Of a DNA stretch of 39,486 nt, positions 1-39,486 are shown piece after piece. Numbering within the stretch: position 1 is the first letter of the stretch; each line of letters begins with the position of its first letter. The translations under genes and the position numbers were made by a program. Origin of the DNA: a virus; the IMG/VR virus record IMGVR_UViG_3300036717_000038, positions 1-39,486 of that record. One strand, 5' to 3'. Below the pieces are notes generated by a model. That model had not been told where the DNA came from and did not search any database. It saw only the letters and a program-made list of their open reading frames with translations.

Positions 1-91
1 GCACGCTCAAAATCCCAATGCGCGCTGTCATCTCCATCATTACAGTGGATTCCACAAAATGGAAATCACTGTAACGCTGGACGGCTACGGC
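1..91. repeat. Terminal direct repeat, copy 1 (identical to 39396..39486). It is either a circular-assembly overlap or terminal redundancy. Bases 1-74 are a duplicate of the 3' end of the gene at 39140..39469.
   Basis: Bases 1-91 match 39396-39486 base for base when aligned by eye. The ATG at 59 corresponds to 39454 and the TAA at 72-74 to 39467-39469. Confidence 0.95.
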
Positions 92-358
92 GCCGGCTCC
101 GGCTACGGCGACGGCTCCGGCTACGGCGCCGGCTACGGCGACGGCGCCGGCTACGGCTACGGCTACGGCTACGGCTACGGCGACGGCTACGGCTACGGCT
201 CCGGCGCCGGCTCCGGCTACGGCTACGGCTACGGCTACGGCTACGGCGACGGCTACGGCGACGGCGCCGGCTACGGCTCCGGCTACGGCTACGGCTACGG
301 CGACGGCTACGGCGACGGCGCCGGCTACGGCTACGGCGACGGCTACGGCTCCAACTGA
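59..358 (+). CDS. Gly-X dipeptide repeat protein (silk-like low-complexity protein), 99 aa
   Basis: The ATG at 59 overlaps the upstream gene's stop (72-74) by 16 nt. After MEITVTLD the product is 45 uninterrupted G-X dipeptides (X = Y, D, A or S) followed by N. It lies on the same strand as the early operon. Confidence 0.6.
   Translation: MEITVTLDGYGAGSGYGDGSGYGAGYGDGAGYGYGYGYGYGDGYGYGSGAGSGYGYGYGYGYGDGYGDGAGYGSGYGYGYGDGYGDGAGYGYGDGYGSN
83..352 (+). repeat. Hexanucleotide tandem repeat GGC-NNC (GGCTAC / GGCGAC / GGCGCC / GGCTCC), 45 units
   Basis: Direct reading shows that only these four hexamers occur over 270 nt. Repeat-shaped ORFs appear on both strands of the ORF track (GY-rich on +, RS-rich on -). 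Confidence 0.95.
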
Positions 359-396
359 ACACTATTCATCCACCACGCAAACACAGGAGAATCACC

Positions 397-597
397 ATGG
401 CAACAGCAAAGAAGTCGCTCGATATGGGCGCACTGCAGGACAACGCGGAGAAGGCGGCGCGCGAATACAAGGCCGCTAAAACGGCCTATCAGCGCGCATT
501 CGACGCCTTCACCCGCGCCGAAGAGAATCACGAAGTCGCGCAGAAGTCGCTGAAGGCTGGCGCTGGTCAATTGCTCGTTCAGACGAAGGTGATCTGA
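397..597 (+). CDS. Hypothetical small helical protein (66 aa)
   Basis: AGGAGA lies about 7 nt upstream of the ATG. The product is rich in Ala, Lys and Glu. No motif recognised. Confidence 0.6.
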   Translation: MATAKKSLDMGALQDNAEKAAREYKAAKTAYQRAFDAFTRAEENHEVAQKSLKAGAGQLLVQTKVI

Positions 598-905
598 TGG
601 CTACCGTCAAAGCGTTCATCCATGCCAAGCTTGAACCGCACTTCACACTGGTCGGCGGTAGCGAGCAGCGAGTCGGCTATTCTATTTTCTCGTTCGACAT
701 GACCAAAAGCGGTTACACCGTGGTCAAGGAAATCGAGGTCGAATTCGACGAGCCGGATTACAAAGACGTGGTCGCTGGCACTGTTCAGGCGATGCGCGAA
801 AAGCAAGCGGAATTGCGCGACGAAGTCAACACGAAAGTGGCGAACATCGAAGAGCAGATTCAGCGCTTGCTGTGCATCGAAAATCACTTTCAGAACGAGG
901 CGTAA
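597..905 (+). CDS. Hypothetical protein (102 aa)
   Basis: Its ATG shares a base with the upstream TGA (TGATG coupling). No motif recognised. Confidence 0.65.
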   Translation: MATVKAFIHAKLEPHFTLVGGSEQRVGYSIFSFDMTKSGYTVVKEIEVEFDEPDYKDVVAGTVQAMREKQAELRDEVNTKVANIEEQIQRLLCIENHFQNEA

Positions 906-907
906 CC

Positions 908-1867
908 ATGGCACTCTCACCCAAAGACCTAGCAATCCGCTCGACAGCGCTGTGGAGCACCGAAGCGGCCGCATGCCTTGGCCTGTCGAAGTACGGCACG
1001 CCGGTATCGGTCTGGATGGAGAAGGTCGGCCAGCGCGCCGAGGCTGACTCTGACGATGTCGACGAGGAAGACGCCGCCGCTGAGGAAGTCACGCAAACCG
1101 AGGCGATGTATTGGGGTCTCGCTTTGCAACCGGCCATTGCACGGCGATACAGCGAAATAACGGGCGAGCCACTCGACAGCCTAGAAGGCGTGACGATCTT
1201 CTCCGACGAGCATCCGTGGATGGCATCCCATTTTGATTATCGCCTGTCAAATAACCGTCGAAAGCTGGTCGAATGCAAGTCTTTCTATCCTTCTAGGAGA
1301 ATAGAGTTCGGCGACGAAGGCAGCGACGACGTGCCGATGGACTGCCTTGTTCAGTGCTTGCACGAGGGCTACATCGCGAAAGCCGATGTCGTGGATCTGG
1401 CCGTTCTGTTCGGCGGTCAGAAGTTCGAGATTTTCACAGTGCCGGTGCGTCAGGATGCCGTCGATATGCTGATCGACAAGCTTCATGCGTTTTGGCAGCA
1501 CGTCGAGAAGCGCGAGCCGCCGACGCCGCAAACCGACGAGGAAGTCAAGGCGTTGTGGCAACGTGACAACGGGCGGGAAGTCATCGCCACGCCGGAAGTC
1601 GAGCGGGCCTGCGCGCAGTTGGCGCAGATCAAGGAAAACCTGAAGGCCGGCAAAGAGGCCAAGGAATCCCTTGACGTGCTCATCAAGAACGCCATCGGCG
1701 AAGCCGCAGCACTCCGCAGCGCCGACCGTTCGCGCATCCTGGCGACGTGGAAGAACTCGAAAGACAAGTTGTCGTTCAACAAGACGCAGTTCGCGATCGA
1801 CAACCCGTCGCTGTACGAGCGCTACACGTCGATGGCTCCGGGTTCGCGTCGGTTTTTGCTGAAGTGA
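908..1867 (+). CDS. YqaJ / lambda-exonuclease-like PD-(D/E)XK recombination exonuclease
   Basis: I chose the ATG at 908 (MALSPKD...), just after the upstream TAA, instead of the track start at 872. The N-terminus STEAAACLGLSKYGTPVSVWMEKVG is typical of YqaJ. Putative catalytic residues are seen in ASHFDY and LVECKS. Confidence 0.8.
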   Translation: MALSPKDLAIRSTALWSTEAAACLGLSKYGTPVSVWMEKVGQRAEADSDDVDEEDAAAEEVTQTEAMYWGLALQPAIARRYSEITGEPLDSLEGVTIFSDEHPWMASHFDYRLSNNRRKLVECKSFYPSRRIEFGDEGSDDVPMDCLVQCLHEGYIAKADVVDLAVLFGGQKFEIFTVPVRQDAVDMLIDKLHAFWQHVEKREPPTPQTDEEVKALWQRDNGREVIATPEVERACAQLAQIKENLKAGKEAKESLDVLIKNAIGEAAALRSADRSRILATWKNSKDKLSFNKTQFAIDNPSLYERYTSMAPGSRRFLLK

Positions 1868-1874
1868 GGATGGG

Positions 1875-2510
1875 ATGACCCTATACGACGACTTGGGAGT
1901 GCCGAAAACCGCCGATACGCCGACGATCAAGAAAGCGTATCGGCGCAAGGCGCAGAAAGCGCACCCGGACAAGGGCGGCGACAAGGCGAAGTTCTACGCC
2001 ATCCAGCGCGCCTACGATGTCCTGGGCGACGAAATGCGCCGCAAGAAGTATGACGAGACGGGCGACGAGTCGGACCCGCAACCTGTCGAGCTTCAGGCGA
2101 TGGGCATCTTGGCAAGCCTGCTGCTGCAACTAGTCGAAAAGATCGATGTCGAGCACCAAAACCTGATTGACATTGCGCGGCAAGAGATAGCCAACAACAT
2201 CTCGAACATCAAGCGCGAAGTCAACAATGTCAAGGAGTCGATCAAGAAGCGCGAGAAGGCTATCAAGCGGATTTCGACAAAGGACGAGAAGAACATCGTT
2301 CGGCAGATTCTTCAGAACAACATTGCGGACCATAACCGGCATCTTTACGACATGCAAAACCAGATCGAAACGCTTCAAGCGTGCGAAGTGCTGTTGAATG
2401 GCTACAGCTACAAGGCCGATCCGAGCATGCAGCGCGGGCCGAGCATCAGCAGTATGTCGATTTTCGAGGCGATGAGTCGTCAAGCCGGTTGGCAAACGAG
2501 GAAATATTAA
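1875..2510 (+). CDS. J-domain (DnaJ N-terminal domain) protein with coiled-coil C-terminus
   Basis: LYDDLGVPKTADTPTIKKAYRRKAQKAHPDKGGD...YDVLGDEMRRKKYDETG carries the HPD tripeptide. No Gly/Phe region or zinc finger follows. Confidence 0.85.
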   Translation: MTLYDDLGVPKTADTPTIKKAYRRKAQKAHPDKGGDKAKFYAIQRAYDVLGDEMRRKKYDETGDESDPQPVELQAMGILASLLLQLVEKIDVEHQNLIDIARQEIANNISNIKREVNNVKESIKKREKAIKRISTKDEKNIVRQILQNNIADHNRHLYDMQNQIETLQACEVLLNGYSYKADPSMQRGPSISSMSIFEAMSRQAGWQTRKY

Positions 2511-2747
2511 ATGGAAATCCGAGAAGAACAACCCCCGAAGCAACGGCGCGGAACGCTCCAATTCCCGGAACTGCGCGACCTGAAGTCGGGGCAGGTTGCG
2601 GTCTACGATCTGGCCTATGCGACGAAGGTTCGGGCTTCCGTGGCGTACCTGCGCCGGTATGACGGGCTGGACCTGAAGACGACGACGGTCCCGGAAGCGA
2701 ACGAAATCAAGGTATGGCTCAATCCTACAACTGAGAAGGAAGAATGA
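2511..2747 (+). CDS. Hypothetical protein (78 aa)
   Basis: The ATG directly follows the upstream TAA, and the stop overlaps the next ATG (ATGA). Confidence 0.55.
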   Translation: MEIREEQPPKQRRGTLQFPELRDLKSGQVAVYDLAYATKVRASVAYLRRYDGLDLKTTTVPEANEIKVWLNPTTEKEE

Positions 2748-3085
2748 TGTTCGAATGGTTCAAAAAATTGCGAAAAATTGTTCGCAACTACGATTCGGAA
2801 AATGCTGGTCTGCATGCTCGTATGAAGGGGGCGGAAAATGCAATAAAAGCCGCTACCGTGATTGACGTTGACGTCGGATTCAGCAATCGTCGAATGGAGA
2901 ACAACATCATCGTTTCCGGAGTGTACCGGGGAAAAGCGCACATCGACATATTCACCGTTCACACGGACGATTTCAAACGATTGGTCGAGATTTTGAAGGA
3001 TATGGAGAGATACGGAAACGTTCGACGTATCGATGCACCACAAACAGTTAAAGCAACTTTTGAGCGCGAATTTAGAAATATCTAA
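2744..3085 (+). CDS. Hypothetical protein (113 aa) in a visibly AT-richer segment
   Basis: ATGA overlap with the upstream gene. Its composition differs by eye from the neighbouring genes. Confidence 0.6.
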   Translation: MMFEWFKKLRKIVRNYDSENAGLHARMKGAENAIKAATVIDVDVGFSNRRMENNIIVSGVYRGKAHIDIFTVHTDDFKRLVEILKDMERYGNVRRIDAPQTVKATFEREFRNI

Positions 3086-3097
3086 CGAGGAAAAATC

Positions 3098-4192
3098 ATG
3101 TTCAACGACGACGAAACCACGACCGAGAGGGTCGAAAACCCGTTCGGCACCAACCAAATGGCGCAGCGTGTCTCCGGAGCGCTGGCCGATGCCCAATCGA
3201 GCGGGGCCGTTGCTGAGATTCAAGGCATGATGATCTTGGCAAAGCGATTCCCGCGCGACGAGAAAGCATCGGTCGACAAGATACTGATGGCTTGCACGCG
3301 CCCGTCGCTGGCCGAAAAGGCGACTTACCAATACGCCCGTGGCGGCACCGACATTACTGGCCCAAGCATCCGCCTGGCCGAGACTATCGCGCAGAAGTGG
3401 GGCAATATAAAATTCGGCGTCGTCGAGATGTCGCGCAGCCAAGGGCAATCCGAAATGCAAGCCTACGCGTTCGACATGGAGACGCTGACCTTCGCCGAGC
3501 GCAAGTTCATCGTGCGTCACATTCGCGACAAGAAGGGCGGCGGCGTGGCCCTGTCGGATGAGCGCGACATCTACGAGTTGTCGGCCAACATGGGCGCTCG
3601 CCGGTTGCGCGCTTGCATCTTGGAATTGATACCGGGCGACGTGGTGGAGATGGCCGTAAAGCAGTGCGATACGACCTTGCGCACCAACATCGAAATCACG
3701 CCGGAATACCTGAAGCAAATGCTGGTGGGCTTCCTGAAGTACGGCGTTTCCAAGCAGCAAATCGAAAAGCGCATCCAGCGCACAATCGATTCGATTACGC
3801 CGGCGCAAATCGTGAATCTAGGCAACGTCTTCAATTCGTTGCGTGACGGCATGTCAGAGCCGGTGGATTGGTTCGAGCCGGAAGCCGAGACAGGCATCGA
3901 CAAGATGATGAAGGCAACCGAAAAGCGGGCCGCCGCCGCGTCAAAACCGGCCGACGTGAAGGAAGATAGCGGCAAGGTCGAGAACGCAGCGCCTGCGGGC
4001 GATACGCAAGGCGGTGGGGATTCCGTGACGCTTTCCGATGTCACGCAAAAGCTGATTAAGGCATTCCGGCGCGCGACTGATATAGACGTGCTCCAAGCCG
4101 ACGCAACGCTGATCGAAACGCTGCCGCCCGAAGAACAGGAAGACGCGCGCGCGGTCTACATCGAGCGGCTTGAAGCGCTGGGGGTGAAATGA
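3098..4192 (+). CDS. Putative single-strand annealing / recombination protein (function inferred)
   Basis: GAGGAAAAA lies upstream of the ATG. This 364-aa ORF sits in the same module as the YqaJ exonuclease and the RuvC-like resolvase. The segments AEIQGMMILAKRFPRDE and ITGPSIRLAETIAQKWGN resemble phage recombination-module proteins I recall. I cannot name the family with certainty. Confidence 0.5.
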   Translation: MFNDDETTTERVENPFGTNQMAQRVSGALADAQSSGAVAEIQGMMILAKRFPRDEKASVDKILMACTRPSLAEKATYQYARGGTDITGPSIRLAETIAQKWGNIKFGVVEMSRSQGQSEMQAYAFDMETLTFAERKFIVRHIRDKKGGGVALSDERDIYELSANMGARRLRACILELIPGDVVEMAVKQCDTTLRTNIEITPEYLKQMLVGFLKYGVSKQQIEKRIQRTIDSITPAQIVNLGNVFNSLRDGMSEPVDWFEPEAETGIDKMMKATEKRAAAASKPADVKEDSGKVENAAPAGDTQGGGDSVTLSDVTQKLIKAFRRATDIDVLQADATLIETLPPEEQEDARAVYIERLEALGVK

Positions 4193-20050: not shown

Positions 20051-23000
20051 TCATGTGCAGATTATTTGATATGGTACGGTCCCGGCAGTAAGGGTCAATT
20101 CATACGGCGAAAGCGGCGTTAGAAGTCCGCCTGTCCCTATTGAGAATTGCCCGACTCCGTATAATGGCGCGCCCCCATTGATAACGACATAAAGGTATTT
20201 TCCATCCGCAGAAGCGGCGATTGCTCTAGGACTTGTCGAAGTTCCGGTCGATACTGTTGGAGACGCCAAGGATGTCAGTGCGCCGCCCGCTCCGATTGAA
20301 AATTGCGAAATCGTCGAATCGCCTGTGTTGCTCACGTAAAGGTAATTTCCGTCCTTCGATGTGCAAGTAAAGTATGGATTCGTACCAACTCCAACCGGCG
20401 ATGTTCCCAACTGAATAGGATTAGCTCCGCCAATGGCATAAATAGAAATCGTGTTGTCGTAGCTGTTTGTGCAATACAACACCCCTTTCGGGCTGACAAT
20501 GATGCTCTGATATCCGTTTGAAGCCCCGCAAGCAGCGGAGCCAGCAATAAGCAATTCGCCGGATATCCCGCGAGTGAAATGCGTAATGTTCCCAGGGAGA
20601 TTTACGAGACTTCCTGTTGACGCGACATAGACATCAATTCCATTTGGATGACAAACAACACTAGATGCATCCGTAGAAGACAAGAAGGTATGCGCGTTCG
20701 CCGAAGCACCCGAACCGCCGCCGCCAGAGAATATCACTGATGGAGCAGACGTATATCCACTGCCACCAGAGGTAACATTGATGCCTGTAACTCGGCCACC
20801 ACTAACCACCGCTATAGCGGTCGCGCCAGAACCGCCGCCACCTGTGAAAGAGATTATCGGAACACTCGTGTAACCGCTTCCATTTCCGGTTATCACGACT
20901 TCTGCAACAACCTGAAGTGCTGTCAAATTTCCAGACAAATCCCTTGCGTATTGATGTATTGTTCCACCCGCAGCGACATATAGATTTTTCCCATCAGGAG
21001 ACACGCCACTTCCACCCGGCGAATTAGAAAATCCACCCAATGTAGTGACGTATGTGCATAGGCCGGATGCAATGCTTCTGGAAAAGACATTTAAAGTTTG
21101 TGACCCTACGGAAGAACCATAGAGGGATATTCCGTCAGGGGAAATGGTAAGAGCCTGAATATTGTTTCCGCCGGTAATGTACTCGGGAGAAAGTGCAGAA
21201 AGTTGACCGTTCGATGCCTTTGTAAGTTGGGCCAAGGTGTCGCCGGAACTGTTCAACGAGACATACACTGAAGCGGCGAACGGCGTTGCACTGGCCTGAT
21301 TCGACGGTCCAGATTCACCGGCAGCATTCACCGCCGTCACGACGTAGTAATACGTGGTGCCGTCCGTCAGGCCGGTATGCACGTAGGTTGTCGCAGTAAT
21401 CCCGGAAATCTTCGTCCCAGCGGTTCCGGTTCCAGAAACCAAAGACCAATACAAATTGTAAGACGTGGCCCCGGCAGCGCCGACCCAAGTTTCCGTCGTC
21501 TGTTCGTTTCCTGCAACCGCCGTCAAAATGCCGGGATTTGGCGCAGGAGTCGGCGTCGGCGTAGGAGCAGGCGTAGGCGTGGGCGTGGGCGCTGGCGGGA
21601 AGAAAGGCGGCAATCCGGCGAACGTCGGCAGCGTCGTCCAGTCCGCGCGCATCTCGTACTGAATGTGAAAGGCGTTGTAGTGGATGTTCGGATACTGGTC
21701 GCTCAAGCGAACGCCGATGTACTTTCCGCTGACCTCGATATCGGTCTTGTTGAAGGCGTAGTTGAGCGTGCCTGACACGTTGCCCGGATAAAAATTCCAG
21801 TAGTTGAAATTGGTCGATTGCTCGGTGTCCACGATCCCGATTGTCGGGTATGGGTAATACGCTGCAACGGTCGTTTCGAGGCCGAACTTGATGACCTCTT
21901 TCTCGCGCGTCGTCGCTCCCATGTCCCACAACTTGCTGACGATAAGATGCTCGTACCGAAACGTGTAGACGCCGAAAATATTGTCGTTGGTCAGCAGGGA
22001 GTAGAAGTTCGTCCCGTCCGTTCCGTAAAGCACCGGAATGCCGTTGTACAGCGCCGTGCAGCAGAAAGTCAGGTTGTCGCCCTGGCTTGAAAATGTCCAC
22101 TTCTTATTGAAGTAGATGGCGAGCAATGCCCTAGGGTTAGCCGAGTATGTGAGATCGTTGGTGTAGGCCAAAAACCCCAAGCAGATGTTCTCGTGCGTAA
22201 CGAAGTAGCCGCCGGATATCGGAATGACGCCAGCCGGCAGAGTCGTGAAATAACCGTCCAGATCGTTCGATATTTTCTCGCAAGTCGTCCCGTTCAGGAT
22301 GTAAAAGCCGTAATTCGTGGCGAACGCCAGGCCGCGATAGTACGGCGTGATCGAGGTGAATTGGTTGGTGCCGATCGACGCCGTGATGTTCGTGTTCGAG
22401 AAGACCGTATTCCCGCTGACAACCTGCACACCGGAGACAACGTTGATCGATGTCTTACCGAAGATGTAGAGATAGTTGTTTGCGGAATACAGCGCCGTGA
22501 TGACGTTGATGAGCGTCGAGTCGGTCATGACAAACGAGCCGCCAGCATTGGCCGAACTGAAGTCCGTGAAGCTGCCGGGCGCCGAAAAGATGATCGTGCG
22601 GTTCGCGTTCGCAATCCACACCCGGCTTGCGTAGGTCGCGATTTGCACGCCGTTGCTGGGCGCCACGCTGACATCTGCCGTCAGGGACGCGCCCGAGCCA
22701 GATCCGCCGGAGAGCGTGACCGCGGCGTTCGCCGTGTATCCGGTCCCCGGATTTGTGATCGTTACCGGGCCCACACCGAAACTGAGAGTAAAAGTGGCGC
22801 CCGTGCCGAAGCCGCCAGTCACCGCTACTGAGCCGGTCGGAATGACGGAATACTGCCCGGTGTTGATGATGTTGAAGCCGGTTATCGCTCCGGTGCTCGG
22901 ATTCACCGCCGAAATCTCGAATTGCGCCGCAGTGACGAAGGTGCCGCCCACGAGGGTCAAAATGTCGTTGGCTTGGTAGCTGGTGCCGGCAGCCGACGCC

Positions 23001-23563
23001 GTGGCCAAGACAACCTGCAATGAAGCGGTTGCCGTCGCCGTGGTGCCGCTGCCAGGCGCTGCGATGGTCAGGGTCGGGACGCTCGTGTAGCCGCTGCCTG
23101 GAAGCGTCACCACGACCGTTTGAATCGTTCCTGTGACCTGTGTGAGCGTTGTGCCGTCGTAGGTGAAATACCCGTTGGCCGGATCGATAATGAGGATTTG
23201 GGTGTCGGACCATGACGTTGCCACCGTGCCGGCGTCCGAAAAGGTGCCGTCTGCGGCGAATTGCGTCACCGCGTTCGTTTCCAGATTGATGCTGTAGCCA
23301 CCGCCAGTGTTCGTGAAAACGATCAATATCGGCGTGTCGTTGAGGTTGTAGGACTGGAAAAACGTCGCCGTGCCGGTCGGCCAACTTCCGAGAATTCCGC
23401 TCGGACCGGCAATAGACAGCATGTTTCCGTAGCCGAGTGGAAACACATTTTCCAGCCATGCGAACTGATCGTCGCCGATATTCTGGCGCGAGGCTTGGGT
23501 ATTGACGCCTTTGAAGTCGCGCAGCGTGTGCGTGAGCTTGGTGCCTTCTTTCGGACCGGCCAC
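20051..23563 (-). CDS. Mosaic tail / receptor-binding protein (1170 aa). It carries GxGYT[ST]xP modules, a Pro-Thr linker, an FN3 domain and a YVTN-type beta-propeller.
   Basis: GGAGGG lies 6 nt upstream of the GTG at 23563. The PT linker is PPFFPPAPTPTPTPAPTPTPTPAPNP, at about 21533-21610. The FN3-like segment is YNLYWS...YYYVVTAVNAAGESGPS. The C-terminal repeats include LYVSNTGDSTISQFSI and LYCTNSYDNTISIYAI. Confidence 0.8.
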   Translation of the reverse strand: MAGPKEGTKLTHTLRDFKGVNTQASRQNIGDDQFAWLENVFPLGYGNMLSIAGPSGILGSWPTGTATFFQSYNLNDTPILIVFTNTGGGYSINLETNAVTQFAADGTFSDAGTVATSWSDTQILIIDPANGYFTYDGTTLTQVTGTIQTVVVTLPGSGYTSVPTLTIAAPGSGTTATATASLQVVLATASAAGTSYQANDILTLVGGTFVTAAQFEISAVNPSTGAITGFNIINTGQYSVIPTGSVAVTGGFGTGATFTLSFGVGPVTITNPGTGYTANAAVTLSGGSGSGASLTADVSVAPSNGVQIATYASRVWIANANRTIIFSAPGSFTDFSSANAGGSFVMTDSTLINVITALYSANNYLYIFGKTSINVVSGVQVVSGNTVFSNTNITASIGTNQFTSITPYYRGLAFATNYGFYILNGTTCEKISNDLDGYFTTLPAGVIPISGGYFVTHENICLGFLAYTNDLTYSANPRALLAIYFNKKWTFSSQGDNLTFCCTALYNGIPVLYGTDGTNFYSLLTNDNIFGVYTFRYEHLIVSKLWDMGATTREKEVIKFGLETTVAAYYPYPTIGIVDTEQSTNFNYWNFYPGNVSGTLNYAFNKTDIEVSGKYIGVRLSDQYPNIHYNAFHIQYEMRADWTTLPTFAGLPPFFPPAPTPTPTPAPTPTPTPAPNPGILTAVAGNEQTTETWVGAAGATSYNLYWSLVSGTGTAGTKISGITATTYVHTGLTDGTTYYYVVTAVNAAGESGPSNQASATPFAASVYVSLNSSGDTLAQLTKASNGQLSALSPEYITGGNNIQALTISPDGISLYGSSVGSQTLNVFSRSIASGLCTYVTTLGGFSNSPGGSGVSPDGKNLYVAAGGTIHQYARDLSGNLTALQVVAEVVITGNGSGYTSVPIISFTGGGGSGATAIAVVSGGRVTGINVTSGGSGYTSAPSVIFSGGGGSGASANAHTFLSSTDASSVVCHPNGIDVYVASTGSLVNLPGNITHFTRGISGELLIAGSAACGASNGYQSIIVSPKGVLYCTNSYDNTISIYAIGGANPIQLGTSPVGVGTNPYFTCTSKDGNYLYVSNTGDSTISQFSIGAGGALTSLASPTVSTGTSTSPRAIAASADGKYLYVVINGGAPLYGVGQFSIGTGGLLTPLSPYELTLTAGTVPYQIICT

Positions 23564-29284: not shown

Positions 29285-30928
29285 CTACTTCACCTGCTTC
29301 AAAGGACCGCCGCCATGCTTGGCCGCCTCCTTTTCATGTTCTGCCTGGGCTTGAGCCTTCGCAGCCTCGGCCTCTTTCTTCTCGATTTCCTTCAACTCGG
29401 TCAGGATGATTTCCTTGCCGGGTGGATCGAGCATTTCGACGAACCGGGCCCGGTTGATTGCCTTGGCTTCAAGCAACTCTCCCGCCATCGACTTGTGATC
29501 TTCGACGAACAGCGGGCTATTGCTGTGGCCGTCAACCTTGACAACATACGATTCCGTGAACTGCGAAGCGGCGAACTTCAGCCCGTCCTCGGCCTTGTAG
29601 ACTTTCTTATCGTACACCTGCATCCATTTCAAGTAAAGTGTGGACAGTTTCTCCAAGCAGTCCTCGATTGTTAGAGAGCGCTTCTTGATGCGCGCGGAGC
29701 CGAGGCGGGCGAGTTCGCTTGTCTGGCGCCCGCTGCGCACGCCGGATTCACCCTTGCCTTGCAGCAGGTTTTGCAGGCCGGACTGCTCTGCGAACATCTC
29801 GTCGATCATGCCGATTTCGCGGAACAGATCAGACGGGATCTCCGGCTTGAATTCCTCGATCTTCGCCATTGGGTCGCCGCCCATGTTGAGCCATCCGCCA
29901 GGCACATCCATGCCGTACAGTTTCTCGTCCGTTATGCCCATGCCGTTGTAGGACTTCGGCGGCCGCACTTGCTTGGCTAGCAGCATGCGCATTTGCCCGA
30001 TGCGCTCGTTGCGCCACCTCTGCAGGCCCGACAGTCGATCAACCTCGGACGAACCCCAATAATAATTGTAGAGCGGGCTTGGGCAAATCTGCACGAACGG
30101 CAGTTCGCCGTCGAGAAAGATGTTCTTGCGATCGTAGATCGTGACGCGGTTGTCGGCGCGCGTGACGACGCGGTAATCGCCGATTTCGTCGTCCCATACC
30201 CACAACTCCTGCATCTCGATCAGTTCCTCGTCCACCTTCGGGATGAAGCGGTTGCGGTCGGTCAGGTCGATGTTGACGTTGCCCTGGATGTTCGGCTGCG
30301 TGTTGAGGATGATGATGCGATCGAGGCCGGAAAGCTCGTAATTCAACTCCTTTTTGCTGCCTTGAAGAAAAGGTAGAAGAGTGTCCTTGTTCGGATGCTT
30401 TTCCAGCTTTCTGGTCAGTTCCGAGCGCGTGATGAAGTAGCTTTGCACAACGGCTTCCTGCCGGTCGGTATGCGGAATATCCTCTCGCAGCACGCCAAAC
30501 TGCTGCGGCTCGATCAAAAACGGGTTCAACTCGCCGTTTTCCGGGATCAGCTTGACGATCATCGTGTTGTAGACCAGCGCCCAGGTCACGCCCTCCCCGA
30601 AAATCAAATCCGCGTTGGAACTCAGCCAGTTGTCGCCGACGGCGCGGCCCAGGATCGGTATTTTGTTCGCTTCGGACTTATCGACCTCGGCTCCGGTGTG
30701 GATGGCGAACTTGGTCGTGTCGGCAGAGAACAAAAAGCTCATCAGCAGATCGATATGCGGGAAAATCTTGTTGTATGGGCTTTCCTCGTCGTCCTGCGAC
30801 CCGCCGAAGAGGTAATAGTTGCGCATCGTGGCGTAGTGCCGCGAGCGTTCTTCCTGCGAAACCATGCATTTCGTAATCAGATCGTTGAAAAACACGTCGC
30901 GCGCGTTATCTTCCTTCGGAATTTGCAT
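29285..30928 (-). CDS. Portal protein (547 aa)
   Basis: The size, the position between terminase and the scaffold/capsid genes, and the charged C-terminal tail (KEIEKKEAEAAKAQAQAEHEKE) support the call. It rests on position and size, not on a motif. Confidence 0.7.
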   Translation of the reverse strand: MQIPKEDNARDVFFNDLITKCMVSQEERSRHYATMRNYYLFGGSQDDEESPYNKIFPHIDLLMSFLFSADTTKFAIHTGAEVDKSEANKIPILGRAVGDNWLSSNADLIFGEGVTWALVYNTMIVKLIPENGELNPFLIEPQQFGVLREDIPHTDRQEAVVQSYFITRSELTRKLEKHPNKDTLLPFLQGSKKELNYELSGLDRIIILNTQPNIQGNVNIDLTDRNRFIPKVDEELIEMQELWVWDDEIGDYRVVTRADNRVTIYDRKNIFLDGELPFVQICPSPLYNYYWGSSEVDRLSGLQRWRNERIGQMRMLLAKQVRPPKSYNGMGITDEKLYGMDVPGGWLNMGGDPMAKIEEFKPEIPSDLFREIGMIDEMFAEQSGLQNLLQGKGESGVRSGRQTSELARLGSARIKKRSLTIEDCLEKLSTLYLKWMQVYDKKVYKAEDGLKFAASQFTESYVVKVDGHSNSPLFVEDHKSMAGELLEAKAINRARFVEMLDPPGKEIILTELKEIEKKEAEAAKAQAQAEHEKEAAKHGGGPLKQVK

Positions 30929-37345: not shown

Positions 37346-37494
37346 CCGTTACAACTTTATCGGTAGCCAGCCGATGACCGAATATTGCGCCTGAACGATT
37401 TGCCCTGTCAAGCGCTTTATGCGAAAAATCTGCATTTTGTTGAATCGATATAGCCACACGATCTAGAATATTGACTAAAAACGTGAATAAATGT

Positions 37495-37522
37495 TTGAAT
37501 ATCTTCGAATATAGTCTATAAT
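37495..37522 (+). promoter_or_regulatory. Rightward early sigma70-type promoter
   Basis: TTGAAT (37495-37500), a 16-nt spacer and consensus TATAAT (37517-37522) lie in an AT-rich tract. GGGAGA and the first early ATG (37566) follow. Confidence 0.55.
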
Positions 37523-38954: not shown

Positions 38955-39139
38955 CCGAACCAACCAGGCCACACCCGCACGAAGGCGAACAAAAGACCGT
39001 GCGCGCCAAACCTGAGACCGTAGCTGCTGGCACTTGTGAGTACGACAGTATTGAGCCGAAAGCACTTTAGACCAGCAGTGAGTAGGACGTAACCCGGCCG
39101 CGTAAGTGCCGGGACCTTCAACCAAACAGGAGCAGAATA

Positions 39140-39469
39140 ATGTCAAAACAAGAAACAATACGAATCGATGAAGTCGAGTACGTCCGCGCGGACAAGGTGA
39201 GGACGTTCGAAGGCGACATCAAAATAATCGTCGCTGATCGCGGCTTCGTGTACATCGGCGTGATGTCGCCAGTTACCGCAGAGTCGACCTTCGTCGAACT
39301 CAACAAGGCGCACAATATCCGCGTGTGGGGAACGACAAAAGGTCTTGGCGAACTGGTCAACGGGCCAACAACGTCAACAAAGCTCGATTTGGTCGGCACG
39401 CTCAAAATCCCAATGCGCGCTGTCATCTCCATCATTACAGTGGATTCCACAAAATGGAAATCACTGTAA
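39140..39469 (+). CDS. Conserved-looking hypothetical phage protein (109 aa). Its 3' end lies in the terminal repeat.
   Basis: CAGGAG lies upstream of the ATG. The segment IRVWGTTKGLGELVNGPT resembles an uncharacterised phage family I recall. The stop at 39467-39469 corresponds to 72-74. Confidence 0.65.
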   Translation: MSKQETIRIDEVEYVRADKVRTFEGDIKIIVADRGFVYIGVMSPVTAESTFVELNKAHNIRVWGTTKGLGELVNGPTTSTKLDLVGTLKIPMRAVISIITVDSTKWKSL

Positions 39470-39486
39470 CGCTGGACGGCTACGGC
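39396..39486. repeat. Terminal direct repeat, copy 2 (identical to 1..91)
   Basis: Same alignment as copy 1, with a constant offset of 39,395. Confidence 0.95.

Follow-up and report, generated by a model that had tools for sequence, protein, structure and literature searches.

Low-complexity tracts built from glycine and aromatic residues have been described in several settings. The prion-like domains of FUS-family proteins, viewed in terms of "stickers and spacers", carry Tyr flanked by Gly or Ser in [G/S]Y[G/S] motifs at high density, are disordered, depleted of aliphatic residues and tolerant of length changes, and are linked to domains of an RNA-binding-type fold. Synthetic prion-inspired (X-Tyr)n heptapeptides (GYGYGYG, SYSYSYS and NYNYNYN, designated GY7, SY7 and NY7) are reported to self-assemble into amyloid fibrils with tight or polar zippers (PMC8163036; PMC10510724). 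Some Hfq proteins combine a small Sm fold with a glycine-rich or amyloid-forming C-terminal region, as in the GGFGGQ repeats of Acinetobacter (PMC11617691) or the E. coli CTR, which bridges DNA (PMC12257945). Strict Gly-X alternation is seen in the crystalline (GAGAGS/GAGAGY)n repeats of silk fibroin, where X is mostly Ala or Ser. The Gly-Ala repeat of Epstein-Barr virus EBNA1 is a viral dipeptide-type repeat of variable length, encoded by a biased, purine-rich codon set and acting through its physical properties (protease and translation effects) rather than through a fold. Finally, high-glycine-tyrosine keratin-associated proteins and lamprin are vertebrate structural matrix proteins of similar Gly/Tyr-rich composition.

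Here we analysed a stretch of viral DNA of 39,486 nucleotides (the window; IMG/VR record IMGVR_UViG_3300036717_000038), in which an earlier note, made from sequence alone, had pointed out an ORF consisting of a short head followed by 45 Gly-X dipeptides encoded by perfect GGC-NNC hexamers. That observation proved correct. TRF reports a period of 6, 45.0 copies and a score of 365, and one codon per amino acid holds exactly (GGC x45, TAC x25, GAC x9, one of them in the head, GCC x6 and TCC x6). The note's remark that the assembly breakpoint sits exactly at the array is roughly right, as the contig is a circular assembly of 39,395 bp whose terminal overlap ends just inside it. The note inferred from this that the copy number may be collapsed; the longest exact internal repeat in the array is 53 nt, shorter than the 91-nt overlap, so collapse is not indicated, although it cannot be excluded and the exact copy number remains uncertain. 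The coordinates of the locus are collected in the table below.

Features of the Gly-X locus and its surroundings in the window (GX, the Gly-X repeat gene; L followed by a number, a related locus in our set)
Position	Strand	Feature	Details	Basis
59..358	+	GX gene	ATG...TGA, 99-aa protein MEITVTLD-(Gly-X)45-N; 9.55 kDa, pI 4.05, 25 Tyr, 45 Gly, no Lys or Arg	Sequence; orthologous ORFs with a conserved head, G-X alternation and a stop in at least 106 related loci
83..352	+	Hexamer array	45 units: GGCTAC x25, GGCGAC x8, GGCGCC x6, GGCTCC x6; X string YASYDSYAYDAYYYYYDYYSASYYYYYDYDAYSYYYDYDAYYDYS, with internal block duplications (YYYYYDY twice, YDYDAY twice)	Sequence; TRF
59..74	+	Overlap junction	GX start ATG (59-61) made of the last base of the partner's Lys codon plus TG of its conserved Trp codon (60-62; AAA-TGG); partner stop TAA at 72-74; overlap 16 nt, GX in the -1 frame	Sequence; same design in 85 of 94 distinct junctions (60 ATG, 25 GTG)
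39140..39469	+	Partner gene	109-aa DUF6948-like protein, pI 9.0, predicted small Sm/LSm-like beta-barrel; equals 39140..39395 + 1..74 on the circle	Pfam, homologue searches, AF2 and Foldseek (see text)
39115..39486	+	Left part of the 650-bp two-gene cassette	Insertion boundary about 39114/39115; partner Shine-Dalgarno AGGAG at 39128-39132; 39396-39486 duplicate 1-91	blastn against L003, L002 and L007; sequence
1..369	+	Right part of the cassette	Homology with cassette-free relatives resumes at about 370 (CCACCACGCAAACACAGGAG)	blastn; sequence
1..91	.	Terminal assembly overlap	Identical to 39396..39486; circularisation point ends 9 nt inside the array	Sequence
397..597	+	First gene downstream of the cassette	66 aa, own RBS; in relatives without the cassette it directly follows the non-coding leader; followed by phrog_2479 (597-905), a RecE/YqaJ exonuclease (908-1867) and a DnaJ-domain protein (1875-2510)	Sequence; profile searches

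The interpretation offered in the note, a silk-like early phage protein that self-assembles or else a hypervariable contingency locus, is only partly supported. It was right that the ORF is a translated-type gene of the early operon, that its ATG overlaps the upstream gene and that the array changes length quickly, apparently by slippage. Frame-breaking length changes in related phages had been named as the observation that would count against a coding repeat; we found instead that related phages change length only by whole hexamers, in frame, with L024 as the one possible exception among more than 100 loci. Absence of peptide evidence, also named, would not refute the gene, as a protein without Lys or Arg cannot be seen by trypsin-based proteomics. 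Self-assembly into a fibre or condensate remains plausible as an inference. A contingency locus in the sense of an on/off switch is not supported, since a 6-nt unit cannot switch the frame; the locus is better described as a length-variable coding minisatellite. Nor is single-codon usage explained by recent slippage alone, because the same GGC/NAC codons recur in unrelated genomes with flank GC from 0.29 to 0.71. What the note missed is the obligate pairing with the upstream DUF6948-like gene and the fact that the pair is an accessory cassette, in place of which near-identical relatives have 6 nt.

Several lines of evidence indicate that the repeat is a gene rather than a chance ORF. A homologue of the partner is followed directly, on the same strand, by a (G-X)n ORF in at least 106 of 116 loci from phages and prophages of many phyla. 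The same holds in 115 cultured Rheinheimera Barba phages (gp018 and gp017), in MW202613 and for 4 of 4 GX proteins of other architectures (P0001, P0002, P0006 and P0013). The protein pattern is kept under different DNA: L008 uses GGC-TAT/TCT/GAT, 13 arrays use GGG and two use GGT, yet the heads (ME.xLTLDG or ..SLGEDAQ..), the strict alternation, the X set (mainly Tyr, Asp, Ser and Asn) and the tail are retained, while the minus-strand Ser/Arg frame is lost in those lineages. The window head, MEITVTLDG, is identical in L035, and L008 and L129 have METTLTLDG and MESTLTLDG. At the junctions, four-fold-degenerate codons before the Trp are fixed to A or G, and other lineages use a 1-nt overlap or a 3-6 nt gap with their own ATG. 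Arrays range from 16 to 61 units; Barba alleles are 210, 216, 240 and 252 nt, and L041/L043, L044 and L042 have 34, 40 and 57 units behind an identical partner C-terminus. Barba18A gp017 and gp018 are transcribed in the early/replication cluster (PMC9305737, Table S2). It should be noted that transcription is shown only for this distant homologue (37% identity in the partner), and that the case for the gene otherwise rests on sequence, without peptide, ribosome-profiling or biochemical evidence for any family member.

The partner belongs to a large family, with 458 homologues retrieved and 1,406 clusters at 50% identity. Its score against Pfam DUF6948 (PF22253) is 20.4 bits against a cut-off of 27 (E 5.6e-4), while close homologues carry PF22253, BFVD structural matches are DUF6948 proteins, and PF22253 genes precede GX ORFs in L133, L135 and L136. 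The Sm-like assignment is a prediction of moderate confidence. The AF2 model has pLDDT 76.9, and Foldseek hits to Naa38, SmAP, Lsm and 3by7 have E 5e-4 to 3e-3 and TMq 0.45-0.58, with the N-terminal helix of canonical Sm proteins replaced by a beta-hairpin. At the sequence level there is no LSM Pfam hit, no hit to any PDB chain at E<=10, and hhalign against E. coli Hfq gives a probability of 0.4%. The only hint of self-association is the existence of tandem two-domain forms of the partner.

Compared with FUS-like domains, the window tract has 25 G-Y-G triplets in 90 residues and no Leu, Ile, Val or Met after residue 7, and it is predicted to be disordered (AF2 of GX alone gives pLDDT 34.5 with no secondary structure, and is otherwise uninformative). 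It differs in that the alternation is a strict dipeptide, that the tract is rich in Asp and lacks Gln and Arg, that it is bacterial-viral, and that tail and folded domain are separate polypeptides, inferred to be translationally coupled. The binary pattern and residue set of the synthetic heptapeptides are identical to those found here, but the natural tracts are 30-120 residues long, always have Gly as the constant partner and interleave Asp, which should oppose fibrillation. In Hfq the tail, likewise Gly- and aromatic-rich and variable in repeat number, is part of the same chain and its repeat is a hexapeptide. With silk the locus shares strict alternation (45 of 45 units) encoded by a repetitive, recombination-prone DNA array, but silk crystallites need small X residues for tight sheet stacking, whereas X in the window is Y25, D8, A6 and S6, mostly bulky Tyr plus charged Asp. 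Silk proteins are secreted and hundreds of kDa in size, while GX is 9.6 kDa and cytoplasmic-type, its head has no hydrophobic signal segment, and its homologue is expressed in the early, non-structural cluster. "Silk-like" is therefore not supported. EBNA1 comes from a eukaryotic virus, its repeat contains only Gly and Ala and it is embedded in a large protein; an effect on proteolysis is not indicated for GX. The keratin-associated proteins and lamprin lack strict alternation.

Across the family, Tyr+Phe has a median of 43% of X, Asp 23% and Ala under 1%; of all tract residues, Tyr makes up 21%, Ser 7.5% and Ala 0.5%, so that the 6 Ala of 45 in the window are unusually frequent. Aromatic residues and Asn are reported to be strongly under-represented in the low-complexity regions of prokaryotic and phage proteins (PMC6821194), which makes conservation of such a tract in phages of many bacterial phyla unusual. 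Neighbouring genes of the module include YqaJ, ERF, Rad52, RecT, Sak, SSB, helicases and methylases.

Taken together, we consider it established by this analysis that GX is a genuine protein-coding gene, the second of a conserved two-gene phage module that is here an accessory cassette in the early, plus-strand replication/recombination operon, and that the tract grows and shrinks by whole hexamers (L024 possibly excepted) under selection that keeps Gly at every second position, keeps aromatic residues at 21% or more of X, excludes basic and aliphatic residues and keeps C-ending codons. Coupled translation of the two proteins, with ribosomes starting at the ATG built into the Trp codon, is inferred from sequence design. 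The Shine-Dalgarno sequence before the window's ATG is weak, and only 50 of 94 junctions have a 4-mer SD. Function is likewise inferred, including any docking, ring formation, RNA binding or reversible self-association. We tentatively propose, as the likeliest reading, that the product is an acidic protein, disordered as a monomer, whose head docks on a probably oligomeric partner and whose Tyr "stickers", spaced by Gly, Ser and Asn and tuned by Asp, form a length-tolerant multivalent tail that would self-associate into a gel, fibril or condensate, or bind a target by aromatic contacts, early in infection near the replication/recombination machinery. Asp content varies from 0 to 56% of X and Ser+Asn from 0 to 64%, which weakens any mechanism that needs a fixed charge; the codon lock across lineages is not fully explained by a purely protein-level function; and the cassette is dispensable in close relatives, so the function is conditional. 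We hold the explanation as a whole with moderate confidence and its functional part with less. Should the tract self-assemble, it would be a natural, minimal, length-tunable sticker-spacer polymer made by viruses of bacteria, a simple system for studying condensate or amyloid biology in prokaryotes and a source of biomaterials. The cultured Barba phages, with natural length alleles and published transcriptomes, offer a model system.

A bolder reading, which we regard as unlikely, is that the pair is a previously unrecognised class of two-component system in tailed phages, in which an oligomeric Sm-like adaptor is co-translated with a Tyr-rich dipeptide-repeat polymer of genetically tunable length. 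Together they would build a membrane-less scaffold (condensate, gel or fibre), or a multivalent decoy, around early replication/recombination in small, ordinary phages, and the codon-locked (GGC-NAC)n array would itself be under selection for translation.

Among the alternatives, the one that survives best, though still unlikely, is an acidic decoy or nucleic-acid mimic, in which the Asp/Tyr-studded extended chain, made early beside the exonuclease and annealing-protein genes, would bind and block a host nuclease or defence sensor in the manner of lambda Gam or T7 gp5.9, with the partner as chaperone or adaptor and rapid length change reflecting an arms race; this would be a new type of counter-defence protein. 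The low pI and lack of basic residues, the location in recombination regions (YqaJ, ERF, RecT, Rad52, Sak and DUF3799 neighbours, and a DUF7666-GX gene between YqaJ and RecT), presence or absence in near-identical phages and length polymorphism within one phage genus on one host are in its favour. However, acidity is not conserved, as some arrays are almost all Ser/Tyr or Asn/Tyr; known DNA mimics are folded proteins with fixed charge geometry, whereas GX is predicted disordered; and early regions of temperate phages carry recombination genes anyway, so the context is weak evidence. PADLOC gave no hit for either cassette protein, although that library holds defence systems rather than counter-defence proteins, and only a marginal LmuC match (E 0.0098) for the neighbouring 102-aa protein.

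Much less likely is a programmed -1 ribosomal frameshift that adds a Gly-X tail to a fraction of the Sm-like protein, as in the phage tail chaperones G/GT, giving mixed oligomers with and without tails. GX does overlap the partner's end in the -1 frame in 98 of 106 loci, other families carry the tract fused in one chain to a small domain such as DUF7666 or TIGR02996, and in the window the Lys tRNA could re-pair on A-AAA at 56-59. Against this, a canonical slippery heptamer is present in only 1 of 94 junctions, the conserved ATG or GTG sits at that exact spot in 85 of 94, the GX frame is closed by a stop 15 nt upstream of the start in much of the IDVEQ class, and several lineages, the cultured Barba phages included, have +1 or 0 frame arrangements or a gap with their own ATG. 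Similarly improbable is that translating the array, or the RNA or DNA repeat itself, is the function, for instance by sensing or titrating tRNA-Gly(GCC) and the queuosine-family tRNAs (Tyr, Asp, Asn), or as a structural DNA repeat, with the peptide as a by-product. GGC is 87% of Gly codons and NAC 84-87%, independent of flank GC, wobble positions vary 5-8 times less than positions 1-2 of the X codon, and three of the four main X residues are NAY-coded. Yet the peptide pattern is unchanged in the arrays with other codons, Ser (TCC) is the third commonest X and not a NAY codon, His (CAC) is rare, and heads, start codons and stops are conserved; moreover, C-ending two-fold codons and GGC are the usual choice of highly expressed genes, and GGC is prevalent in prokaryotic low-complexity regions (PMC6821194). 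A non-coding repeat, a minus-strand Ser/Arg-rich ORF (66-362, 98 aa) or an assembly artefact, suggested by the five of six frames that the repeat leaves open and by the circularisation at the array, is largely refuted by the array's presence in more than 100 independent assemblies and 115 isolate genomes, by a conserved product, head, start and stop in the G-X frame only (the Ser/Arg frame acquires stops or other residues when codons change) and by the plus-strand orientation of all neighbouring genes.

We also rejected non-coding iterons or a replication origin, as head, start and stop are conserved and the peptide is kept under different codons; a bacteriocin or microcin precursor with a double-glycine leader, as the head is only 8 residues, there is no transporter and expression is early and intracellular-type; and a virion structural protein, as the homologue falls in the early expression cluster. 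Megablast of window positions 1-3000 against INPHARED phages gave no match, and searches of IMG/VR with single flank proteins found no relatives, which were retrieved only with a profile. Exact-sequence look-ups of the GX protein and the partner found nothing on record, probably because contigs break at the array, and an exact scan of JGI metagenome contigs for the head DNA gave 0 hits. PHROGs gave no hit for either protein, Pfam and NCBIfam hits to GX (TrAA12, ser_rich_anae_1) are compositional and far below their cut-offs, and Rfam at gathering thresholds gave no match in the whole window. The conserved non-coding leader (38955-39125) folds no better than shuffled sequence (z -0.34). Literature searches on DUF6948, DUF7666, lamprin in phages, GYGYGYG and tyrosine-rich low-complexity phage proteins found no paper on this family and no described function for either gene, and the two Barba phage papers do not discuss the gene. 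The arrays break short-read assemblies, with about 25 of 116 related contigs ending in or just before their array, and they are missed or mislabelled by annotation; one GenBank record (MW202613) labels its GX ORF "lamprin", which is a compositional annotation artefact.

Re-examination of the sequence confirmed the observation made in the earlier note, namely that an ORF encodes a short head followed by a tract in which every second residue is glycine. The ORF comprises 99 codons from ATG to TGA and specifies MEITVTLD, then 45 Gly-X dipeptides and a final Asn. The underlying array consists of 45 hexamers (GGCTAC x25, GGCGAC x8, GGCGCC x6 and GGCTCC x6; Tandem Repeats Finder: period 6, 45.0 copies, score 365), and every amino acid in the tract uses a single codon. 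The ATG overlaps the upstream 109-codon ORF by 16 nt. As the terminal 91 nt of the window are duplicated, the window represents a complete circular phage genome of 39,395 bp, the junction of which ends 9 nt inside the array, while the upstream ORF runs through it. The longest exact internal repeat of the array is 53 nt, and collapse is therefore not indicated, although the copy number is not proven. It should be noted that five of the six frames are open over the array simply because of its composition, including a minus-strand Ser/Arg-rich ORF, so that openness alone says nothing about coding.

Early genes lie on the plus strand and virion genes on the minus strand. Downstream of the Gly-X ORF, and on the same strand, are a 66-aa ORF, a phrog_2479 protein, a RecE/YqaJ-type exonuclease and, just after the latter, a DnaJ (J-domain) protein with a long coiled-coil-like tail; whether the proximity of a phage J-domain protein to a putatively aggregation-prone protein is more than a coincidence is uncertain. 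Promoter-like sites are located upstream. Contigs that encode exactly the same 66-aa protein (L002-L007) are 92-95% identical to the window on both sides but lack both the 109-aa gene and the Gly-X ORF, a 650-bp segment being replaced in them by 6 nt, which identifies the pair as an accessory cassette in the early operon. A further contig, L001, starts inside the array, and another, L010, stops just before it. A non-coding stretch conserved in relatives lies just upstream of the insertion point and ends in the hairpin CCCGGCCGCGUAAGUGCCGGG; it has no Rfam match and folds no better than shuffled sequence (z -0.34). Five of the cassette-free relatives (L002 and L004-L007) carry a small extra ORF (MMIYVMQFITRPFVVAGYLAFWIKLAFNHGWSLAKKPFVDFEE, membrane-like) about 130 nt after the 86-aa gene, which is absent from the window and from L003 and marks another indel hotspot in the same leader region.

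Coordinates of the features in the window and in related loci
Sequence	Coordinates	Strand	Feature
Window	59..358	+	Gly-X ORF
Window	83..352	+	hexamer array
Window	39140..39469	+	109-codon upstream ORF (partner)
Window	1..91 and 39396..39486		identical terminal segments (assembly overlap)
Window	39115..39395 + 1..369		cassette
Window	37440-37522		promoter-like sites
Window	38955-39114		conserved non-coding stretch
Window	1875-2510	+	DnaJ-domain protein
Window	29285-30928	-	portal-like protein
Window	20051-23563	-	1170-aa virion/tail protein
Window	21540-21597		second tandem repeat, within ORF 20051-23563
L013	4130-4273		additional Gly-X array
L038	2451-2588		additional Gly-X array
L116	2387-2951		additional Gly-X array
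L121	1151-1342		additional Gly-X array
L018	3853-3960		additional Gly-X array
L123 (MW202613.1, UOF79295.1)	3234-3548		Gly-X ORF annotated "lamprin"
L134 (protein P0098)	3001-3507		DUF7666-(G-X)n fusion

The Gly-X ORF proved to be one half of a conserved two-gene module. The 109-aa partner has 458 homologues in a word-indexed search and matches 1,406 clusters at 50% identity (703 at E<=1e-10) in an exhaustive search, and it appears to be a divergent member of Pfam DUF6948, with PF22253 being assigned to homologues. Using a profile of 20 homologues, we retrieved 80 loci from IMG/VR and 32 loci from GTDB genomes, the latter being prophages or MAG contigs of Actinomycetota, Bacteroidota, Alpha- and Betaproteobacteria, Chloroflexota, Myxococcota, Patescibacteria and others. 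In 106 of 116 loci, a (G-X)n ORF follows the partner gene immediately on the same strand. Of the remaining ten, five are on contigs that end within 70 nt of the stop, two (L018 and L022) show an array in a looser scan, and about three may truly lack it. About 20 further contigs end inside the array, indicating that these repeats routinely break short-read assemblies. Some phages carry additional Gly-X arrays elsewhere in the same region (L013, L038, L116, L121 and L018) and may have more than one such gene, or long-head variants.

The module is also present in cultured phages, as 115 Rheinheimera "Barba" myophages carry it as gp018 + gp017; for two Rhodobacter capsulatus phages, the match concerns the partner protein. 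Two spring-water Caudoviricetes genomes carry the module as well, and there the Gly-X ORF is annotated as "lamprin", a vertebrate cartilage protein, which is a compositional mis-annotation. Four Gly-X proteins with other architectures, drawn from a direct search with the ORF, comprise two with a 75-aa "GAC-motif" head, one with a C-terminal globular domain and one with a Zn-finger-like tail, and all four likewise sit right behind a DUF6948(-like) gene. The exception is a DUF7666-(G-X)n fusion, which in locus L134 lies between YqaJ and DUF1351/RecT. Fusions in one chain to DUF7666 or, in a planctomycete-size genome, to a TIGR02996 repeat-companion domain (proteins P0098, P0012, P0062, P0077 and P0115) show that the tract behaves as a portable module.

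Four lines of evidence agree that the array is coding, and that it does so in the Gly-X frame. First, the peptide is kept while the DNA differs: locus L008 uses GGC-TAT/TCT/GAT and encodes METTLTLDGDGYGSGYG...GYGSNG, thirteen arrays use GGG for Gly, and locus L129 mixes TAC/TAT, TCC/TCA and GGC/GGT/GGA. Second, short heads are conserved, one class being ME.xLTLDG, which includes the window and has an identical head in locus L035, and the other ..SLGEDAQ.. or INFE(D/E)SQ. Third, the minus-strand Ser/Arg frame is not conserved. Fourth, length differences between close relatives are whole hexamers. Within the Barba genus, on one host strain, the alleles are 210 nt (41 of 60 sampled genomes), 216 nt (17 of 60), 240 nt and 252 nt, while L041/L043, L044 and L042 have 34, 40 and 57 units behind an identical partner C-terminus; only L024 looks frame-broken. 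Frame-breaking length changes had been named beforehand as what would speak against a gene, and the comparison comes out in favour of one. Complete ORFs hold 16-61 units with a median of 34, placing the 45 units of the window in the upper quartile.

The junction between the two genes suggests how the Gly-X ORF is expressed. In 85 of 94 distinct junctions, the start (60 ATG, 25 GTG) is formed by the last base of the preceding codon and the TG of the partner's conserved C-terminal Trp codon, in the Gly-X frame and open to the array, and where the preceding codon is four-fold degenerate, its third base is A or G. The result is a -1-frame overlap of 10-22 nt in 98 of 106 loci. Although this pattern invites a frameshift model, a canonical slippery heptamer occurs in only 1 of 94 junctions, the Gly-X frame is often closed 15 nt upstream of the start, and several lineages, including the cultured Barba phages, use a 1-nt overlap or a 3-6 nt gap with their own ATG. 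Coupled, independent initiation is the better reading, albeit one inferred from sequence design. Published transcriptomes of Barba18A place gp017 (logCPM about 10-11) and gp018 (about 13) in the early/replication cluster and not in the late structural one (PMC9305737, Table S2), which is evidence at the transcript level and for a distant homologue only. The window protein has no Lys or Arg, and tryptic proteomics could consequently not detect it.

Over 110 distinct arrays, Gly makes up 49% of tract residues, Tyr 21%, Asp 12.5%, Ser 7.5% and Asn 6%, while all other residues are below 1% and Lys+Arg together amount to 0.4%. As fractions of X, aromatic residues (Tyr+Phe) are never below 21% (median 43%), whereas Asp ranges from 0 to 56% and Ser+Asn from 0 to 64%; Tyr is therefore the constant element, and charge is not. 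Codon usage is striking, with GGC accounting for 87% of Gly codons against 38% in the partner genes, and TAC, GAC and AAC for 84-87% against 47-51%. This holds whatever the flank GC (0.29-0.71) and also in the DUF7666 and long-head variants, and Tyr, Asp and Asn, with rare His, are the queuosine-tRNA amino acids. Within arrays, the wobble positions carry 0.15 and 0.21 bits of entropy, compared to 1.14 and 0.64 bits at the first two positions of the X codon. Slippage explains homogeneity within an array but not the recurrence of the same codons in unrelated genomes. Translational selection on a very repetitive message would be the simplest explanation, although it leaves the point short of explained, and GGC is reported as prevalent in prokaryotic low-complexity regions (PMC6821194).

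For the partner, AlphaFold2 with the family alignment predicts an all-beta barrel with one short helix (pLDDT 76.9). Foldseek matches this model to Sm/LSm-like proteins (Naa38, archaeal SmAP, Lsm1-7 and the metagenomic Sm-like 3by7) at E 5e-4 to 3e-3 and TMq 0.45-0.58, and in BFVD to DUF6948 proteins and a cyanophage Sm-like protein. Searches revealed no sequence-level link to Hfq or to any PDB chain, and "Sm-like small beta-barrel" is therefore a fold-level statement of moderate confidence. The most conserved element, NIR.WGT(T/S)KGLGEL..GP, lies in the loop between strands 3 and 4. Tandem two-domain homologues of about 180-230 aa exist (proteins P0241, P0243, P0246, P0268, P0274 and P0280), which hints at self-association of the domain.

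With respect to genomic context, we considered 281 ORFs of 110 aa or more flanking about 100 loci. Those with a Pfam match are dominated by recombination and replication proteins (YqaJ 9, ERF 5, DUF3799 3, Rad52 2, and also RecT, Sak, SSB, Sipho_Gp157, DnaB, AAA_24, helicases, methylases and HNH), and no further gene is constant. The module is thus an accessory pair of the early region in both temperate and lytic tailed phages.

Taken as shown by the analysis is a conserved pair of genes, one encoding a predicted folded barrel and the other a length-tolerant, Tyr-rich and usually acidic tract with a conserved docking-type head, whereas co-expression by coupled initiation, docking, self-association and target binding are inferred. 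AlphaFold sees the tract as disordered (pLDDT 34.5). By analogy, Gly/Ser/Asn-Tyr binary peptides self-assemble into amyloid fibrils (PMC8163036). [G/S]Y[G/S] tracts drive FUS-type condensation. Sm-fold proteins with Gly-rich or amyloid-forming tails also exist, namely Hfq (PMC11617691, PMC12257945). This led us to favour a tethered, multivalent aromatic "sticker" tail that self-associates or binds a target during early infection. We are highly confident that the ORF is a real gene of this module and fairly confident in coupled initiation over frameshifting, but the self-association mechanism remains tentative. The main rival is an acidic decoy or mimic acting on a host nuclease or defence system, which would fit the recombination context, the accessory status and the fast length change, but is weakened by the non-conserved Asp content.

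The interpretation offered in the earlier note, a self-assembling silk-like early protein or a contingency locus, is only partly supported. The product is not a silk-type crystallite, because X is not small, nor is the array a phase-variation switch, because the unit is 6 nt. Neither is the pair of the G/GT frameshift type. In principle, it resembles FUS-like low-complexity domains and Hfq with its tail, but differs in the strict dipeptide periodicity, in composition, in being split into two coupled polypeptides and in the locked codons. Literature searches found no paper on DUF6948, DUF7666 or these phage proteins, and as a survey of prokaryotic and phage low-complexity regions reports aromatic residues and Asn as strongly under-represented (PMC6821194), the family is atypical. 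Gly/Tyr low-complexity proteins as such are known; there is a fair chance that the pair constitutes a new kind of phage two-component system, and the natural length alleles in cultured Barba phages make it testable. The second tandem repeat in the window encodes a PTPTPTPAPTPTPTPAP linker inside the virion/tail protein, an ordinary Pro/Thr linker unrelated to the Gly-X array.
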